DNA of 64,000 bases from Acidimicrobiia bacterium (lineage in GTDB: Bacteria > Actinomycetota > Acidimicrobiia > Spongiisociales > UBA11373), in the NCBI GenBank assembly GCA_016932695.1, contig JAFGCH010000143.1:4768-68767 (forward strand), read 5' to 3'. The translations under genes were made by a program, and so were the position numbers. Positions 20,417-53,157 of the stretch are shown in pieces. The notes under the pieces were generated by a model. The model saw only the letters and a program-made list of their open reading frames with translations. It was not told where the DNA came from and ran no database searches. The number at the start of each line of letters is the position of its first letter. Position 1 is the first letter of the stretch.

Positions 20417-21145
20417 TCAGATACCCGATCCGTCGGAGTGGGCCTCGTCGGCCGGGGGACAAGGCGTCTTGGACCCGTTGATGCGCCCCTCTAGTTCCGC
20501 CACCCGGTCGATGAGGACCTCCAAGACGGCCACGGCGTGATCCCCCTTGCTCTCTGCCAGATCCATGGCGGGGTGCGGCGCCGTCGCCCGGTCGATGACG
20601 CGGCCGGCCAGGCCGACCACCGTGGCCCCGGCGGGCACGTCCCGCACCACCACCGCCCCCGCTCCGACGCGAGCCTTCTCCCCCACGGTCAACGCCCCCA
20701 GGATGATGGCCCCGGCCCCGACGATCACCCCGTCCATGAGGGTGGGATGGCGCTTGACCCGCTGCAGGCTGGTCCCGCCCAGGGTGACCCCCTGATAGAG
20801 GGTGACGTCGTCCCCGATTTCCGCCGTCTCGCCGATGACCGTGCCCATGCCGTGGTCGATGAACAGCCGCCGGCCGATGATCGCCCCGGGATGGATCTCG
20901 ATGCCGGTCAGGGCCCGGCCCAGATGGCTCAGCGCCCGGGCGAGGAAGCGCTGCTTGGCCTGCCACAGCCGGTGCGCCAGGCGGTGGAAGAGCAGGGCAT
21001 GCAAGCCCGGGTAGAAGAAGAGCACTTCCAGGGTGGAACGGGCCGCGGGGTCGCGCTGTTTGACCGTCCGCACATCTTCCGCCAGGCGGCGCAGCGGATG
21101 CGGCCGATCGGGGGCCTTCAGTTCGGGGATGAGCCGGGCGGTCAC
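20417..21145 (-). CDS. cysE: Serine O-acetyltransferase
   Basis: [25 protein letters not shown], hexapeptide repeats. Confidence 0.95.
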
Positions 21146-22086
21146 GGCGTCGCCTCCGTGGGATCCTCGACCAGGGCGGTGGACAGGTAGCGCTCCCCGG
21201 GGGAGGGCAGGATCACTACCAGCAGCCTGCCGGCGTTCTCCGGCCGGGCGGCCACCCGCAGGGCGGCGTGTACCGCGGCTCCGGAGGAGATCCCGGCGGC
21301 CACGCCCTCGGTGCGAGCCAGCAGCCGGGCGGTGGCGAACGCCTCCTCATCGGTCACCGTCACCACCTCGTCGATGACCGACCGGTCGAGCACCTCGGGC
21401 ACGAAGCCGGCCCCGATGCCCTGGATCTTGTGCGGCCCCTTGGCTCCGCCCGACAGGACCGGGGACCCCGCCGGTTCCACGGCAACCATCTGCACCGCGG
21501 GCCGGCGGGACTTCAGCACCTGGCCCACCCCGGTGATCGTGCCTCCCGTGCCCACCCCGGCCACCACGATATCCACCAGGCCGTCGGTGTCCGCCCAGAT
21601 CTCCTCGGCCGTGGTGCGCCGGTGCACCTCGGGATTGGCCGGGTTGCGAAACTGCTGCAGCATTAGAGAGCCGGGGGTCTCCGACACGATCTGCTCGGCC
21701 CGGGCGATGGCCCCGGCCATGCCCTCCGGCCCGGGGGTGAGCACCAGTTCCGCCCCGAGCAGGCGCAGCAGGCGGCGCCGCTCGACGCTGGCCGTCTCCG
21801 GCATGGTGAGGATCAGGCGATAGCCCTTGGCCGCGGCCACGAACGCCAGGGCGATGCCGGTATTACCGCTGGTCGCCTCTACCAGGGTGGCCCCGGGATC
21901 GAGGCGCCCCTCCGCCTCGGCCGCCTCGACCATGGCCCGGCCGATGCGATCCTTCACGCTGGACAGCGGGTTGAAGAACTCCACCTTGGCCACGACCCGG
22001 GCGCCCCCCGGCGGCACCAGGCGGGCCAGTGCCACCAGGGGGGTGTCCCCCACCGTCTGGGTTATGTCCTGGTAGATCCGTGCCAT
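21142..22086 (-). CDS. cysK: Cysteine synthase A
   Basis: [11 protein letters not shown] (PLP Lys), TSGNTG, GTGGT, HKIQGIG. Confidence 0.96.
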
Positions 22087-22101
22087 ACGCCTTCCTTCAA
22101 T

Positions 22102-22132
22102 GAAAGAGGCCCGGGTCGGGGACCACGGGCCT
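22102..22132 (-). terminator. Attenuator-type hairpin just upstream of the cysK RBS
   Basis: Minus strand AGGCCCG-U-GGUC-CCC-GACC-CGGGCCU followed by CUUUC (weak U-tract). Confidence 0.55.
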
Positions 22133-22154
22133 TGCTTCGGCGAGACTGCTGCGT

Positions 22155-22229
22155 CTAGTTGGTTGGCGCGCGCCTGCCGCAGTAAGCCCCGGAGGGGCGA
22201 CAACAGCGGCAGGGGAACGATCTGGTCAT
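22155..22229 (-). CDS. Cys-rich leader peptide of cysK-cysE ([24 protein letters not shown])
   Basis: Hand-translated 24-aa ORF with 4 Cys codons (C7, C9, C10, C17); TAGCGT -10 at 22245-22240; terminator-like hairpin downstream. Confidence 0.75.
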
Positions 22230-22292
22230 CTCGACGCGCACGCTAGTACGACGCTCCGTCCTATCCGGCCGGTTTCTCAGCATGGGCCCTGC

Positions 22293-27195: not shown

Positions 27196-30100
27196 ATGCC
27201 CGCCCTCGAACTCTTCTCCCCCCCGGTAGCGGAGTGGTTCCGTTCTTCGTTCGCCGCCACTACCCCGGCCCAGGAGCAGGGCTGGCCGGCCATCGCCGCC
27301 GGCGGGCACGTCCTCATCCACGCCCCCACGGGATCCGGGAAAACCCTCGCTGCCTTCCTGTGGGGCATCGATCGCCTCTTCGCCGCACCACCTCCGCCGG
27401 AGCGGCGCCGCTGCCGCCTGCTCTACATCTCCCCGCTCAAAGCCCTGGCCTACGACATCGAACGCAACCTGCGGGCTCCCCTCCAGGGCATTGCCCGCTG
27501 GGCGGAGCGCTCGGGCACCCCGCTGCCGTCTCTGGTCACCGCGATGCGCACCGGCGACACCCCCGCCGAGCAGCGGCGCGCCATGCTGCGGCACCCGCCC
27601 GACATCCTCATCATTACCCCGGAGAGCCTGTACCTGGTGCTCACTTCGTCGGCCCGCGAGATCCTGGCCCCCGTGCGGTGGGTGATCGTCGACGAGGTCC
27701 ACGCCCTCGCCGGCACCAAGCGCGGCGCCCACCTCGCCCTTACCCTGGAACGGCTCGAAGCCGTCACGGCCGCCCCGCCGCAGCGCATCGGGCTCTCCGC
27801 CACCCAGCGTCCCTTAGAAGCGATCGCCCGCTTCCTGGGAGGGGGCACGCTCGACGGAGACGACTGGACGCCCCGGCCCGTGACCGTGGTCGATGCCCCG
27901 CGGGACAAGAGCCTGGAGATCGAGATCGTGGTCCCCGTCGAGGACATGACCCGCCCCGAGGACGACCTGCCGGCGCCGGACCCGGCGGCACCCCCGCCCC
28001 GCCGCTCCATCTGGCCGGCGATGTACCCCCAGCTCCTGGATCTGGTGCGGGCCCACCGCTCCACGATCATCTTCTGCAACAGCCGGAGCCTGGCAGAGCG
28101 CCTCGCCGCCCAGATCAACCACCTCGCCGGCGAAGAGCTGGCCAAGGCCCATCACGGCTCCGTGTCCAGGGAACAGCGCCTGGCCATCGAGGACGGCCTG
28201 AAAACGGGGACGCTGCGGGCGGTGGCGGCCACCTCATCGCTGGAGTTGGGCATCGACATGGCGGCGGTCGACCTGGTGGTGCTGGTCGAGTCCCCGCCGA
28301 CGGTGGCTCACGGCCTGCAGCGAGTGGGCCGGGCCGGCCACCAGGTAGGGCAGCCCAGCCGGGCCAAGGTGTTCCCCAAACACCGTCACGATCTGCTCGA
28401 GGCCGCCGTCCTGGTGCACCGCATGGAGCAGGGCCTGATCGAAGAGACCCGGCTCCCTGCGAACCCCCTCGACGTGCTGGCCCAGCAGATCGTCGCCGTG
28501 GTCGCCGGCGGCCCGCAGCGGGTGGACGACCTCTACGCCCTGGTGCGGCGGGCGGCCCCCTATGCCACCCTGCGCCGGGCTCCCTTCGAGGCGGTGCTCG
28601 ACATGCTCGCCGGCCGCTACCCCTCCGACGAGTTCGCCGAGTTGCGCCCCCGCCTGGTTTGGGACCGGGAGGACGGCACCCTCACCCCGCTGGGCAACGC
28701 CCGCCTCCTAGCGGTGACCAACCCCGGCACCATTCCAGATCGAGGGCTGTACACCGTGGTGGTGCCCGAAGGGGGGAGGGTGGGCGAACTGGACGAGGAG
28801 ATGGTCTTCGAGAGCCGCGTCGGCGACACCTTCGTGCTCGGCTCCTCCACCTGGCAGATCACCGAGATCACCGTCGATCGGGTGGTGGTCGCCCCGGCGC
28901 CCGGGTCGGCCGCGCCGCGGCTCCCCTTCTGGAAGGGGGACACCCCGGGACGCCCCCTGGAGACCGGCAGGGCCCTCGGCGAATTCACCGCCGCCGTGGG
29001 CGCTCTCGACCCCGCCGAGGCCCAGCGGGTGCTGATCGCCGAGTACCACCTCGACCGGAGAGCGGCGGCCAACCTGGCCCAGTACCTGGCGGAGGAGAAG
29101 GCGGCCACCGGCGCCCTTCCCACCCACCGCACCGTGGTCGTCGAGAGGTTCCGCGACGAAATCGGCGACTGGCGGCTGGTGCTGCTCTCCCCCTTCGGCG
29201 CCGGGATCCACGCCCCGTGGGCCCTGGCGGCCTCCCGCCGCCTGCGCGCCCGCCACGGGCTACACGTGGACGCGGTGTGGTCGGACGACGGGTTCATCCT
29301 ACGCTTCCCCGACGTCGACGATCCACCCGATCCCGCCGAGTTGGTGCTCGCCCCCGACGAGGTCGAGGATCTGGTGCTCGAGGAGGCCGGCGACAGCGCC
29401 TTGTTCGGCGCCGCCTTTCGCGAGGCCGCAGCCCGCGCCCTGCTCCTGCCCCGCCGCCGCCCCGGGCAGCGCACCCCGCTGTGGCTGCAGCGCCGCCGCG
29501 CCTGGGGCCTGCTCGCCGCCGCCCGCCGCTTCCCCGACTTTCCCATCGTGATCGAGGCCTATCGCGAAGTCCTACAGCAGCACTTCGACCTGCCCGCCCT
29601 GCAAGAGCTGCTGGGCGACATCGCGTCGCGCCGGGTGCGCCTGGTGCCGGTCACCACCGGCGGGCCCAGCCCTTTCGCCTCCTCGCTCGGCCTGGACTTC
29701 GTCGCCTCCTTCATGTACGAGTACGACGCCCCGCCCGCCGAGCGCCGCGCCGCAGCTCTCACCATCGACCAGGGCTTGTTGCGGGACCTCCTGGGTGAGC
29801 CCGAACTGCGGGAGCTGCTCGACCCCGAAGCCCTCACCGGCGTGGAGCTCGAGCTGCAGCACCTCGCCCCGGGGCACCGGGCGGTCGGAGCGGACGGCAT
29901 GGCCGACTTACTGCGCCGTCTCGGCCCGCTGACCGAAGCGGAGGCGGCCGCCCGGTGCGCCGAGGGCGAGGCGACCGCACTGCTCAGGACCCTGGCGGAG
30001 CAGCATCGGGCCTTCGCGCTGGCCCTGGGGGGCGAGACCCGCTGGGCCGCCGTCGAGGACGCCGCCCGCCTGCGCGATGCCCTGGGGGCTTCCCTTCCGG

Positions 30101-51323: not shown

Positions 51324-52262
51324 CTACAGGCGGGCGATCCGCTCGATCAGCAGATCGAAGAAAGCCTCCGAGTCGAGGCGCCGGATCACGGTGCAGTTGG
51401 GCTGCAGGCCGGTGACCCCCCACCAGTCGACCACCGTCATGCCCATGGTGAGCTCGCTGGAGGCCTCGATGCGCACGTTGCAGCGCCGGCCGCTGAAGAT
51501 CTCGGGGTGGAACAGGTAGGCGATCACGCACGGGTCGTGCAGCGGCCCACCCTCCAGGCCGTACTTCTCGACGTCGTAGCGTTCGAAGAACTCCAGCCAT
51601 CCCGCCACCGCATCGCCCACCCGGGTGCCCAGCGCCCGCAGGCGCTCCAAGTGCCGCGGCTTGATGAGCGCCTGATGGGTCACGTCCAGGGGGAGCATGG
51701 TCAGCGGCACCCCGCTGGTGAAGACGATGTCGGCAGCCTGGGGGTCCACGTAGATGTTGAACTCCGCCGCCGGGGTGGCGTTTCCCCCTTCGAAGAAGCC
51801 CCCGCCCATCAGCACGATCTCCCGGATGCGGGGGACGATCTCCGGGGCGCGCTGCAGGGCCAGGGCAATGTTGGTCAGCGGCCCCAGCGGGCAGAGGGTG
51901 ATGGTCCCCGGCGCCTCCTCTCGAAGCGCCCGCACCAGGAAGTCGGCGGCGTGCTCCGCCTGCAGCGGCATCTGCGGCTCGGGAAGGTCGGCGCCGTCGA
52001 GGCCGGTGCGCCCGTGCACGTACTCGGCGGTAACCAACGGGCGCACCAGCGGCCGCTCGGCGCCGGCGCACACTGCCACGTCGGCTCTACCGGCGAGCTC
52101 GCACACGACCCGGGCGTTGCGTGAGGTCAGGGGCAGGGGCACGTTCCCCGCCACGGTGGTGATGCCCCGTACCTCCAGCTCGGGCGAAGCCAGCGCCAGC
52201 AGCAGGGCCACGGCGTCATCCTGGCCGGGATCGGTGTCGATGATGATGGGGCGCCCGCTCAC
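51324..52262 (-). CDS. Inosine/uridine-preferring nucleoside hydrolase
   Basis: DTDPGQDD, AEFNIYVDP, LHDP. Confidence 0.93.
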   Translation of the reverse strand: MSGRPIIIDTDPGQDDAVALLLALASPELEVRGITTVAGNVPLPLTSRNARVVCELAGRADVAVCAGAERPLVRPLVTAEYVHGRTGLDGADLPEPQMPLQAEHAADFLVRALREEAPGTITLCPLGPLTNIALALQRAPEIVPRIREIVLMGGGFFEGGNATPAAEFNIYVDPQAADIVFTSGVPLTMLPLDVTHQALIKPRHLERLRALGTRVGDAVAGWLEFFERYDVEKYGLEGGPLHDPCVIAYLFHPEIFSGRRCNVRIEASSELTMGMTVVDWWGVTGLQPNCTVIRRLDSEAFFDLLIERIARL

Positions 52263-52263
52263 C

Positions 52264-53157
52264 TCAGCCCCCCAGGGCTTCGACCTCGGCCCGAGTGGGC
52301 AGCGAAGCCTGGGCCCCCCGCCGGGTCACCGCCGCCGCCCCGCACCGCACCGCCCAACGGGCGGCGGCCACCAGGTCGGCCCCGCCGACCAGGGCGTCGG
52401 CCAGACCGGCACAAAAGGCGTCCCCGGCGCCGGTTGGATCCACCGCGGTGACCCGCGGGGCGGGCACGTGGGTGGCCCCCTCGCCGGTCACCACCAACGC
52501 CCCATCGGCGCCCAGGGTCACCACCACCCCCTTCGGCCCTTCCAGCGAGCGCGCCAGGGTCGCCGCCTCTACGATCCCGGTGGGAGGGGCCGCCCCGGCC
52601 AGCAGGGCCAGTTCGGTGCGGTTGGGCACCAGCACGTCGACTCGCGATAGGAGAGCGGCAGGAAGGGGATGGGCCGGAGCGGGGTTGAGCACCACCGTGC
52701 CCTCGGCCAGGGCGGCGGCCGCCTCGACCGTCTCGAGAGGGATCTCCAACTGCAACAGCACTACCTGCGCCCCGGCGATCACCGCGGCGTCGAGGTCGCC
52801 GGGAGCCAGGGCCCCGTTGGCCGCCGGGATCACCACGATGGCGTTCTCGGCGGAATCGTCCACCATGATCAACGCCAGGCCGGTGGCCAGCGACGCGCTG
52901 CGCCGCACGGTCGCCGTGCCCACCCCGGCGGCATCGAGGGCCGCCAGCAGGCGGTTGCCGGCCTCGTCTCGGCCCACCATGCCCACCATCTCCACGGTAC
53001 GTCCCAGCCGAGCGGCGGCCACCGCCTGGTTGGCCCCCTTGCCCCCGGTATCGTGGGCGTGCCCCCGGCCCATCACGGTCTCCCCGGGCAGCGGCAGACG
53101 GGGCACCCGCACGGTGGCATCCAGGTTGAGGCTTCCGACTACGGTGATCTCGGGCAT
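52264..53157 (-). CDS. rbsK: Ribokinase (PfkB family)
   Basis: GSLNLD, GGKGANQA, NPAP, DPTGAGDAF. Confidence 0.92.
   Translation of the reverse strand: MPEITVVGSLNLDATVRVPRLPLPGETVMGRGHAHDTGGKGANQAVAAARLGRTVEMVGMVGRDEAGNRLLAALDAAGVGTATVRRSASLATGLALIMVDDSAENAIVVIPAANGALAPGDLDAAVIAGAQVVLLQLEIPLETVEAAAALAEGTVVLNPAPAHPLPAALLSRVDVLVPNRTELALLAGAAPPTGIVEAATLARSLEGPKGVVVTLGADGALVVTGEGATHVPAPRVTAVDPTGAGDAFCAGLADALVGGADLVAAARWAVRCGAAAVTRRGAQASLPTRAEVEALGG

Follow-up and report, generated by a model that had tools for sequence, protein, structure and literature searches.

A conserved leader with a cysteine-codon ORF and a terminator-like hairpin upstream of cysK-cysE in Acidimicrobiia-like Actinomycetota: a probable transcription attenuator

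Does the DNA immediately preceding the cysK gene of an uncultured Acidimicrobiia bacterium carry a switch that senses cysteine supply, and if so, of which kind is it? The window analysed here is a stretch of 64,000 nucleotides. On its minus strand, a -10 box, a small ORF (sORF), a GC-rich hairpin, a U-rich tail and the cysK Shine-Dalgarno sequence (SD) follow one another and lead into cysK-cysE (Table 1), with the ATG start codon of cysK at 22086 and the GTG start of cysE overlapping the end of cysK by 4 nt. An earlier note had named these elements (-10 box, 24-codon sORF with four Cys codons, stem, hairpin and SD), and each of them could be located in the sequence; cysK and cysE as the downstream genes were confirmed by matches to TIGR01139 and TIGR01172 above the cut-offs. 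Our reading is that the leader is probably a ribosome-mediated transcription attenuator of the trp/his-leader type, which would sense charged tRNA-Cys and thereby control cysK-cysE.

Table 1. Features of the cysK leader and the downstream genes in the window
Feature	Position	Strand	Evidence
Putative -10 promoter box TAGCGT (TANNNT type)	22240..22245	minus	conserved spacing to sORF AUG among relatives
Leader sORF, 24 codons + stop	22155..22229	minus	homologous sORFs in 17/17 full leaders
Putative regulatory Cys cluster C7-R8-C9-C10 (TGC CGC TGT TGT)	22200..22211	minus	core TGC-CGC-TGT invariant in families A and B and in L168
Hairpin P1 (regions 1:2, putative anti-antiterminator)	22173..22213	minus	predicted -27.1 kcal/mol
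Candidate antiterminator (regions 2:3)	22126..22190	minus	predicted MFE with ribosome footprint, terminator 3' arm not yet transcribed
Predicted terminator hairpin GGCCCG-U-GGUC-CCC-GACC-CGGGCC (regions 3:4)	22108..22131	minus	terminator scan; predicted -20.0 kcal/mol
U-rich tract UCUUUCAUU	22099..22107	minus	terminator scan
cysK Shine-Dalgarno GAAGGAAGG	22090..22098	minus	conserved in relatives
cysK (O-acetylserine sulfhydrylase A), putative first regulated gene	21142..22086	minus	TIGR01139, 444 bits vs cut-off 351
cysE (serine O-acetyltransferase)	20417..21145	minus	TIGR01172, 238 bits vs cut-off 211

The sORF extends from an ATG at 22229 to a TAG stop codon at 22157-22155, and begins 10 nt past the TAGCGT box. 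Its Cys codons are TGC (22211-22209), TGT (22205-22203), TGT (22202-22200) and TGC (22181-22179, C17), of which only C9 and C10, placed mid-ORF, are consecutive. A scan with the sigma-70 consensus called no promoter; the box, missed by that scan, was recognised because it is conserved among relatives. No SD fits between the TANNNT box and the sORF AUG, and as there is no room for one, the mRNA would be leaderless or carry a leader of 2-5 nt. The maximal ORF in the same frame has 42 codons and starts with the ATG at 22283. This extension is not conserved, as the upstream in-frame starts of the relatives differ or are missing, and comparison with the relatives gives the ATG at 22229 as the conserved start.

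Viewed within the window only, the signal against chance is modest: 5 of the 248 ATG ORFs of 15-40 codons (2%) contain at least four Cys codons, and folding of the whole leader gives an MFE within the usual range (z = -0.6). Among the other four Cys-rich small ORFs, one (20901-21014, plus strand) sits within cysE (20417-21145) in antisense orientation, and three (29559-29621, 52127-52219 and 53073-53120) fall inside long ORFs of the ORF lists and are probably out-of-frame chance ORFs. No second copy of the leader, and no regulon, was found in the window, where the hairpin pattern and the Cys-core pattern occur once each and the covariance model detects no other copy. The weakness of these window-only statistics is what speaks for a chance ORF beside a chance hairpin in GC-rich intergenic DNA. 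That explanation is nevertheless refuted, its likelihood being practically nil, by the preservation of the arrangement, with a covarying hairpin, in 17 to 20 independent metagenomic or MAG loci. It is therefore conservation in relatives that makes the leader significant.

The relatives' set comprises 17 full-length cysK leaders from uncultured Acidimicrobiia-like Actinomycetota with CysK proteins at least 72% identical, and the alignment of the terminator hairpin contains 20 leaders. All 17 full-length leaders have the promoter box, sORF, hairpin and SD in the same layout upstream of cysK, and Cys-rich sORFs, which the earlier note had suggested looking for in relatives, are present in every one of them. 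The leaders of more distant CysK genes do not have this layout. An sORF with at least four Cys codons stands upstream of cysK at 11 of 21 loci with CysK identity of at least 70%, as compared to 3 of 142 loci below 70%. A single TANNNT box is located 9-12 nt before the sORF AUG in 16 of the 17 leaders (the background in these loci being 0.0008 per nt), and in the remaining one, L169, the AUG follows at 15 nt and an in-frame GUG at 6 nt. The sORFs are 22-25 codons long and their stop codons end 66-72 nt before the cysK ATG, fixed in position but variable in identity (TGA in 10, TAG in 5 and TAA in 2). The cysK SD reads GAGGGAAGG or GGAGG in the relatives. From the fixed distance between box and AUG, the narrow length range and a stop codon that keeps its place while changing its identity, we infer that the sORF is translated.

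What does selection maintain in this sORF? Judging from the homologous leaders, it is the Cys codons. These number 2-6 per homologous sORF and make up 17% of all sORF codons, as opposed to 1.06% in the genes of the window; the rare codon TGT accounts for 52% of them, as opposed to 16% in those genes. Four sORFs (in L087, L144, L168 and L171) have diverged in sequence, yet carry 5-6 Cys codons each. The motif C-R-C-(C/R)-(R/C)-P recurs in the clade, and three leaders (L001, L083 and L164) have no consecutive Cys codons (C-R-C-R). Since small Cys-rich peptides exist, this recurrence might also reflect a functional micropeptide (e.g., a metal- or redox-active one) that is co-transcribed with cysK, the hairpin being an ordinary partial terminator. 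We regard this as very improbable. Identity at third codon positions of the sORF (0.85-0.90) is at or above that at first positions (0.77), whereas the corresponding values in cysK are 0.68 versus 0.89-0.92, so that the sORF is not conserved in a protein-like manner; moreover, the non-Cys residues as well as the number (2-6) and spacing of the Cys residues vary freely, and the conserved P-x-G-A stretch overlaps the GCCCC/GGGGC hairpin, including the compensatory change in L164. Because third positions are not relaxed, the constraint appears to act on the RNA and its codons, not on the peptide.

Conservation that extends to synonymous sites, together with the sequence CUGCCGCUGU, which is invariant, and the existence of conserved hairpins, would also be expected of a structured untranslated cis-regulatory RNA (riboswitch-like or protein-binding), in which the sORF would be a by-product of GC-rich structure. 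This is very improbable, as the positions of AUG and stop are kept while the identity of the stop varies, the ORF length is held at 22-25 codons, and in-frame Cys codons are still enriched in members that can no longer be aligned. Furthermore, covariation-supported structure is limited to the terminator, and Rfam (release 15) yielded no match at gathering thresholds in the whole window; when the region was searched at E values up to 10, the best sub-threshold hit scored 23.6 bits against a threshold of 67.9 and was on the opposite strand.

The anatomy of an intrinsic terminator, a GC-rich hairpin plus a U-tract, is present between the sORF and cysK, with TCTTTCATT directly after the hairpin (22131-22108), and termination is predicted to occur there. 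Across the 20 leaders, 96.3% of the hairpin cells are paired, double-sided changes are found in 12 cells at 3 pairs, and the covariation score was matched by none of 500 shuffles. In family A, the bulge and the loop are the only variable positions, and the covariance model matches cysK leaders only. The tail is pyrimidine- and U-rich in 18 of the 20 leaders, while L165 and L085 have no U-tract. A role as terminator of the upstream gene was rejected, given that the leader accompanies cysK after any of four different upstream genes (encoding a HAD hydrolase, an acyl-CoA dehydrogenase, an FeS protein and a guanylate cyclase) and the hairpin sits downstream of the leader's own -10 box. The central proposal of the earlier note, that a Cys-codon leader ORF and a terminator attenuate cysK-cysE, is thus supported at the level of sequence by the layout, the Cys enrichment, the stop position and the compensatory changes of the hairpin in relatives.

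In classical attenuators (trpL, hisL and leuL of E. coli; the actinobacterial trp and ilvB leaders), four regions are involved: the regulatory codons lie in region 1, the pairings 1:2, 2:3 and 3:4 are mutually exclusive, and 3:4 forms the terminator, GC-rich and followed by a U-tract, just ahead of the first structural gene. We propose the same four-region logic for the cysK leader, which would differ in sensing cysteine and in having an sORF that is apparently leaderless, or nearly so, instead of being led by an SD. Hairpin P1 has an outer stem, CCUGCCGC/GCGGCAGG, and an inner stem, GCCCC-UCC-GGGGC (22186-22198). CCTGCCGC (22213-22206) is exactly complementary to GCGGCAGG (22180-22173), and CTGCG (22182-22178) is complementary to CGCAG (22153-22149). 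In the candidate antiterminator, GGGGCUU (22184-22190) and CUGCGGCAGG would pair with CGCAG (22149-22153), CUCGCC (22139-22144) and AAGGCCCG, the last being the 5' arm of the terminator. The pairing given in the earlier note as GGGCUU/AAGGCCC is present but was imprecisely described, as it consists of 4 bp and 3 bp around a G-G mismatch.

The proposed switch might operate as follows. Transcription would start a few nt before the sORF AUG, from the TAGCGT box, and the 24-codon sORF would be translated. When Cys-tRNA is plentiful, the ribosome would reach the stop codon, P1 would re-form behind it (CCUGCCGC with GCGGCAGG, GCCCC with GGGGC), and the 5' arm of the terminator would be left free, allowing the GC-rich hairpin with its U-tract to end transcription before cysK. 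If Cys-tRNA runs short, the ribosome would stall at C7-R8-C9-C10, within the 5' arm of P1; the freed 3' arm (GGGGCUU...CUGCGGCAGG) could then pair with the spacer after the stop codon and with AAGGCCCG while the 3' arm of the terminator is still to be made, the terminator would be delayed, and RNA polymerase would continue into cysK-cysE. A further difference from the classical attenuators is that the stop codon precedes the terminator by about 24 nt, which implies that termination would be restored by re-formation of 1:2 behind the ribosome, not by masking of region 2.

How well do the relatives and the folding models agree with this scheme? In family A, 90% of the cells of P1 plus terminator and 86.7% of those of the antiterminator are paired, as compared to 26-51% for the antiterminator in slid controls and 22-57% in the slid controls of both folds. 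Within P1, the inner stem is 96% paired in family A and shows one compensatory change (GCCCU/AGGGC in L164), and the core of the outer stem, CUGCCG/CGGCAG, is 74% paired. Another P1 register obtained with RNAalifold (A1 columns 73-77 with 104-108), with apparent U/C-A/G covariation, was set aside because this covariation is likely a single event common to L083 and L164. The antiterminator pairing is the predicted MFE structure if a ribosome footprint covers C7, C9 or C10 before the 3' arm is made, and antitermination is, in this sense, a modelled pairing. In the window, a footprint on the Cys cluster makes the predicted fold change from P1 to one in which the 5' arm of the terminator is paired, but only as long as the 3' arm has not been made, and in 8 of the 17 leaders such a footprint abolishes the predicted terminator (probability at most 0.3). 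At equilibrium, the terminator of the window is favoured despite the stalled ribosome (its probability falling from 0.98 to 0.7, with about 9 kcal/mol in favour), so that switching would require kinetic control.

The earlier note had also suggested folding the alternative states. The antiterminator is the weak part of the scheme: the alternative folds fit family A, but in the window the complementarity between the sORF 3' half and the terminator 5' arm is not above that of random GC-rich window segments (z = +0.27), and covariation of P1 or the antiterminator within family A is almost nil. Over the leaders, this complementarity is modest, with a mean z of -0.96 and p about 0.02-0.03 for L002, L165, L169 and L168; a perfect complement of 9 bp, ACCGCGGGC/GCCCGCGGU, exists in family B. 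In some family A leaders, the terminator is not regained when the ribosome is modelled at the stop codon. The pairing probability of the 5' arm in truncated transcripts of family A barely differs between the stalled and the stop state; this quantity is uninformative, since nearly every state offers the GC-rich arm something to pair with.

Previous studies bear on whether such a leader would act on transcription or on translation. A comparative-genomics study of 2005 predicted Cys leader peptides ahead of actinobacterial cys operons; they were described as "without obvious terminators", with Cys runs adjoining the stop codon, and Rho-dependent termination was suggested (PMC1262725). The present family shares with them the Cys-codon leader ORF upstream of a cys operon, but has a conserved, covarying terminator-like hairpin. 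In mycobacteria, leaderless polycysteine sORFs regulate cys operons, one of them, Rv2334A, being located upstream of cysK1-cysE (Canestrari et al. 2020, 10.1101/834739). The studied case, Ms5788A, acts on translation: its Cys tract pairs with the SD, and there is no terminator (10.1101/834739). Common to these sORFs and the present ones are an unannotated short Cys-enriched ORF in Actinomycetota, upstream of cysteine-metabolism genes including cysK-cysE; a start at or near the 5' end of the transcript without an SD, which for the present sORFs is only a prediction from the TANNNT box 9-12 nt upstream of the AUG (implying a 5' UTR of about 2-5 nt); and the presumed sensing of charged tRNA-Cys by ribosome stalling. 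They differ in that: consecutive Cys codons form a run at the C-terminal end of the mycobacterial sORFs, whereas the Cys codons of the present sORF are mid-ORF and interspersed (C-R-C-C), a C-terminal poly-Cys tract being absent from the window sORF and from every family A member; the present leader has a conserved hairpin and U-tract between sORF and SD; and the Cys tract does not match the SD as that of Ms5788A does. The best duplex between Cys tract and SD region is 4 bp (-6.7 kcal/mol), which is not meaningful, and the consensus fold has no conserved pairs on the SD or AUG. Occlusion of the SD by the Cys tract, mycobacteria-style, was thus ruled out for lack of complementarity.

A broader translational explanation would be that the sORF senses Cys-tRNA while the hairpin is constitutive (a stabiliser, a pause site or a standby-site structure), and that stalling alters cysK translation or mRNA stability, possibly through pairing of the U-tract with the SD or some other refolding near the SD. 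The U-tract is indeed complementary to the cysK SD (-13.4 kcal/mol), the window terminator is thermodynamically dominant in every modelled state, and the two leaders without a U-tract fit this explanation as well, as do reports that intrinsic terminators are scarce in Actinobacteria (PMC2965389, PMC1262725) and that, among Cys sORFs, those studied by experiment all affect translation via SD occlusion (10.1101/834739). We nevertheless consider it rather unlikely: in addition to the poor Cys tract/SD duplex and the unpaired SD and AUG in the consensus fold, a GC hairpin of 10 bp with a U-rich run behind it, located 10 nt ahead of the SD, is the anatomy of a terminator, and it is kept in 18 of 20 leaders. 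Transcription attenuation is the reading that we prefer.

A precedent for a Cys uORF combined with an intrinsic terminator exists outside the Actinomycetota. The uORFC-8-2 motif is found upstream of cysS in Rhodobacterales, and ribosome-mediated transcription attenuation by Cys-tRNA has been proposed for it (Brewer et al. 2021, PMC8632094). As in the cysK leader, conserved Cys codons lie in a stem that is followed by a stem and U run read as a terminator. However, uORFC-8-2 belongs to Alphaproteobacteria, regulates a tRNA synthetase gene instead of a biosynthesis gene and has two tandem Cys codons at positions 14-15; there is no evident sequence similarity to the cysK leader, and the window has no Rfam match. 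In Deinococcus deserti, cysS is preceded by a leaderless 10-codon leader peptide with two Cys, the mechanism of which is undefined (de Groot et al. 2014, PMC4007540). It resembles the present sORF in that a cysteine-related mRNA begins with a leaderless leader ORF containing Cys, but occurs in another phylum, before cysS, and is much shorter.

The cysK leaders very probably represent a real family that has not been described before, although the type of switch is known. Their novelty is limited because Cys leader peptides are known both in mycobacteria, upstream of cysK1-cysE, and in Rhodobacterales, where that of cysS is accompanied by a terminator. The family would fill a gap left by earlier surveys, in which Actinobacteria had Cys leader peptides without terminators and mycobacteria a translational mechanism, and it adds a well-conserved cis-regulatory RNA, not in Rfam, to an uncultured freshwater/sediment lineage of Actinomycetota. 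Cysteine biosynthesis in this lineage is probably controlled by the charging of tRNA-Cys rather than by a protein regulator, and the leader could provide a compact natural Cys-responsive switch for tests in actinobacterial hosts. Gene callers miss both the small ORF and the premature terminator upstream of cysK, and both merit annotation in these genomes.

It is conceivable, and we suggest it only tentatively, that a leader with Cys codons of the C-R-C type (UGY-CGN-UGY) is an ancient feature of cysK across Actinomycetota, of which the read-out module was exchanged during evolution: an intrinsic terminator in the Acidimicrobiia-like clade, a stem overlapping the stop codon in Micrococcales, and SD occlusion in mycobacteria. 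If this were true, classical transcription termination controlled by a leaderless or near-leaderless sORF would be seen for the first time in an actinobacterial Cys attenuator, namely that of this clade. Micrococcales leaders with a stem overlapping the stop codon are L019, L025, L033, L039, L063, L076 and L107.

The leader upstream of cysK-cysE is probably a Cys-tRNA-sensing, ribosome-mediated transcription attenuator of these two genes. The feature described in an earlier note is confirmed: a TAGCGT -10 box followed by a 24-codon small ORF (sORF) with four Cys codons is present in the window as listed there, and the 8-bp complementarity between CCUGCCGC and GCGGCAGG and that between CUGCG and CGCAG are real. 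The pairing of GGGCUU with AAGGCCC also exists but comprises only 4 + 3 bp around a G-G mismatch. Judged on the window alone, the leader is only mildly unusual: in this 72% GC window, at least four Cys codons occur in 5 of the 248 small ATG ORFs, the minimum free energy (MFE) of the whole leader is ordinary (z = -0.6), and an Rfam scan of the window gave no match to it. The cysE GTG start overlaps the cysK stop codon in the tetranucleotide GTGA (21142-21145, minus strand); this overlap, also annotated in most relatives, suggests translational coupling of both genes.

Parts of the cysK-cysE leader in the window
Feature	Position	Strand	Basis or remark
HAD-type hydrolase gene end	22293	-	sequence
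-10 box TAGCGT	22245-22240	-	sequence
sORF, 24 codons	ATG at 22229, stop TAG 22157-22155	-	ATG ten nt after TAGCGT
sORF Cys codons	codon positions 7, 9, 10, 17	-	sequence
Terminator hairpin GGCCCG-U-GGUC-CCC-GACC-CGGGCC	22131-22108	-	sequence
Tract UCUUUCAUU after hairpin	22107-22099	-	sequence
cysK Shine-Dalgarno (SD) GAAGGAAGG	22098-22090	-	sequence
cysK ATG	22086	-	TIGR01139, 444 bits
cysE, downstream of cysK, 4-nt overlap		-	TIGR01172, 238 bits

Relatives of CysK were sought in species-representative genomes, in JGI metagenomes and by look-ups of ten chosen CysK homologues. The nearest are uncultured Actinomycetota/Acidimicrobiia MAGs and metagenome contigs, and no cultured relative above ~70% CysK identity was found in those searches. 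With one exception, the same leader was present in every relative with a CysK identity of at least 72% and enough upstream sequence. The Cys-rich sORF is conserved upstream of cysK in 17 full leaders, window included, and three further contigs carry the hairpin part only (20 in all). The exception, L170, comes from the MAG of leader L164 (GCA_040961635.1). This second cysK paralogue shares 77% identity with the window CysK and lacks a Cys leader, a hairpin and a downstream cysE; in this MAG the proposed attenuator is present only on the cysK-cysE copy. At 71% identity (L135), the sORF is cut at the contig end and the layout is more distant, with the stop codon ~160 nt before cysK, and the leader is absent at Acidimicrobiales and Iamiaceae loci of ~70% identity (L030, L049, L089, L134). 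As an empirical control, each locus was scored by its best Cys-rich sORF in the 260 nt preceding cysK. One with at least four Cys codons was found at 11 of the 21 loci at or above 70% identity versus 3 of the 142 below it, and chance fits poorly as an explanation. As the upstream neighbour differs among loci (HAD hydrolase, AidB-like acyl-CoA dehydrogenase, FeS protein or guanylate cyclase), the leader element goes with cysK rather than with its neighbour.

The sORF spans 22-25 codons in all leaders, with 66-72 nt between the end of its stop and the cysK ATG. The position of this stop is kept while its identity varies (TGA in 10, TAG in 5 and TAA in 2), which marks it as a codon under selection to act as a stop; an untranslated structured RNA fits poorly here. 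Cys accounts for 69 of the ~403 sORF codons (17%), compared to 1.06% in window genes. Four sORFs are unalignable except for CCGCUGU (L087, L144, L168 and L171), yet each has 5-6 Cys codons, in the motifs GCCCCPHC, RCPACAC...CCCP, DCRCCCPC and RCPSCCC...CLCP, respectively. TGT makes up 52% of the sORF Cys codons (36 TGT:33 TGC) but 16% of those in window long ORFs (36:187). Window TGT codons lie at 22200-22205, and use of this rare Cys codon would sharpen stalling. In family A, one of the leader subgroups, sORF third positions are as conserved as first positions (identity 0.85-0.90 vs 0.77), unlike those of cysK, which are relaxed as usual (0.68 vs 0.89-0.92). What is constrained is hence the RNA and its codons rather than the peptide, and a functional Cys-rich micropeptide accounts poorly for the sORF. 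A conserved P-x-G-A stretch coincides with a hairpin, GCCCC-NNN-GGGGC, for which L164 has a compensatory GCCCU/AGGGC.

Exactly one TANNNT hexamer (TAGCGT, TACCGT, TACGTT, TAGCAT or TACGAT) occurs in each of the 17 leaders, against a background of 0.0008 per nt at these loci. Its 3' end lies 9-12 nt from the sORF AUG, apart from L169 (15 nt), in which an in-frame GUG lies 6 nt after the -10 box. No SD sequence fits between the -10 box and the AUG. Judging from the sequence, the mRNA would be leaderless or have a 2-5 nt leader, as for mycobacterial LL-sORFs. The sORFs of a second subgroup, family B, open with three AUG codons in a row (L002 2855-2875; L169 1055-1075). Before them stands an in-frame UUG in L002, and the GUG already mentioned in L169, in either case exactly 6 nt past the -10 box; this arrangement may be a device securing initiation on leaderless or very short-leader mRNA.

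The terminator hairpin is the most conserved part of the leader, and in family A its variation is confined to the bulge and loop. In a covariance-model alignment of the 20 leaders, 96.3% of terminator cells were paired, and changes on both sides were seen at three pairs (12 cells): GGUC/GACC became GGCU/AGCC in L168 and GGUG/CACC in L086, and the closing A-U became C-G. The observed covariation score was reached by 0 of 500 shuffles; although this alignment was fitted to the model and favours structure, a plain MAFFT alignment shows these changes too. The covariance model matched these cysK leaders only (at least 32 bits; next best, 22 bits), with no second copy of the hairpin in the window. 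The window terminator has a predicted energy of -20.0 kcal/mol, and a U-rich or pyrimidine-rich run follows the hairpin in 18 of the 20 leaders. In the other two, from an acyl-CoA-dehydrogenase-linked subfamily (L165 1160-1187; L085 ~30-53), GUCGCCACG or GUCGUCACG replaces the run, and the L165 hairpin contains a U-G pair and a changed inner stem; in these leaders the hairpin may function in the absence of a canonical U-tract, or may terminate weakly.

In the window, hairpin P1 (predicted -27.1 kcal/mol) joins the Cys-codon region to codons 14-19. The ribosome was modelled as a footprint from -15 to +12 around the A site, with the terminator 3' arm not yet transcribed in the window case. When the footprint is on C7, C9 or C10, the partners of GGGG.CUU and CUGCGGCAGG in the MFE structure are the post-stop spacer and the 5' arm of the terminator; P1 forms instead when the ribosome is absent or sits on the stop codon. 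The predicted pre-terminator fold switches with footprint position, in line with the terminator/antiterminator model of the earlier note. In family A, a second CUGCC(G) just upstream of the terminator mimics region 1, the 5' part of P1, which gives CGGCAG(G) a choice of two partners; in L082, an A-U pair of this second pairing has become G-C, a compensating change. Pairing in family A reaches 90% for P1 and terminator and 86.7% for the antiterminator, versus 22-57% for slid controls. In family B, ACCGCGGGC and the terminator arm GCCCGCGGU form a 9-bp complement in L002 and L169, and in L165 with one G-U pair; L087 and L171 have like but shorter complements (6-8 bp), and L168 a different one. 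A footprint on the Cys cluster lowers the terminator's equilibrium probability to 0.3 or less in 8 of the 17 leaders.

Several points limit the support for the alternative structures. P1 and the antiterminator show almost no covariation (family A), and complementarity between the sORF and the terminator arm is at chance in the window (no better than random GC-rich segments, z = +0.27) and only marginal elsewhere (mean z = -0.96). Moreover, the window terminator is still favoured at equilibrium under the footprint (0.98 to 0.7), and in several family A leaders moving the modelled ribosome to the stop codon fails to restore the terminator. Given these limits, the switch would have to be kinetic. 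The E. coli trp switch is also held to be kinetic, its 3:4 pairing being more stable than 2:3.

The main alternative, which we regard as unlikely, keeps the Cys-sensing sORF but has it act on translation or on mRNA stability. Complementarity to the cysK SD is present in the U-tract (-13.4 kcal/mol); however, the Cys tract lacks such complementarity (-6.7 kcal/mol), unlike that of Ms5788A of M. smegmatis (10.1101/834739). The stretches concerned are the terminator's U-rich tail GCCUCUUUCAUU and the SD region UUGAAGGAAGGCG (22088-22110, minus strand), and CCUUUCU/GGGAAGG pairs of a similar kind are readable in relatives; this could be an added translational layer, or may simply be polypyrimidine meeting polypurine.

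Overall, the interpretation as a Cys-codon attenuator of cysK-cysE is supported, and the element is a new, lineage-specific family of a known kind. A 2005 study predicted Cys leader peptides in front of actinobacterial cys operons, "without obvious terminators" (PMC1262725). Mycobacterial polycysteine leaderless sORFs are cysteine-responsive translational attenuators, and Rv2334A precedes cysK1-cysE (10.1101/834739). For Rhodobacterales cysS, an upstream Cys uORF followed by an intrinsic terminator has been described (PMC8632094), and for Deinococcus deserti cysS a leaderless Cys leader has been reported (PMC4007540). The present family is distinguished by Cys codons that are interspersed in mid-ORF, by a probably leaderless or near-leaderless sORF, and by a canonical, covarying terminator in a phylum whose Cys leaders were reported without one.

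Among the loci retrieved, other actinobacterial lineages show Cys leaders of their own in front of cysK, which supports the interpretation and lowers the surprise. In Micrococcales (Cellulomonas, Actinotalea, Luteimicrobium; L019, L025, L033, L039, L063, L076 and L107), a different one lies 140-200 nt upstream of cysK (L025 ~2800-2860). Its sORF ends in ...C-R-C-L*, ...CCRTSCR*, ...TCHCR* or ...CRCCR*, with the stop codon within a conserved UAGAGCGCYGG and a complementary CCRGCGCUC ~50-70 nt downstream. These look like a separate conserved family with a stem starting at the stop codon. At L102 (~290-370, 133-211 nt upstream of cysK), the Cys codons of the sORF ...MCRCCRHQA* fall within the 5' arm of a perfectly paired hairpin, GGUGUUGUC/GACAACACC. 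C-R-C (UGY-CGN-UGY) is common to L102, the Micrococcales leaders and the window family, and could reflect deep common ancestry or convergence.
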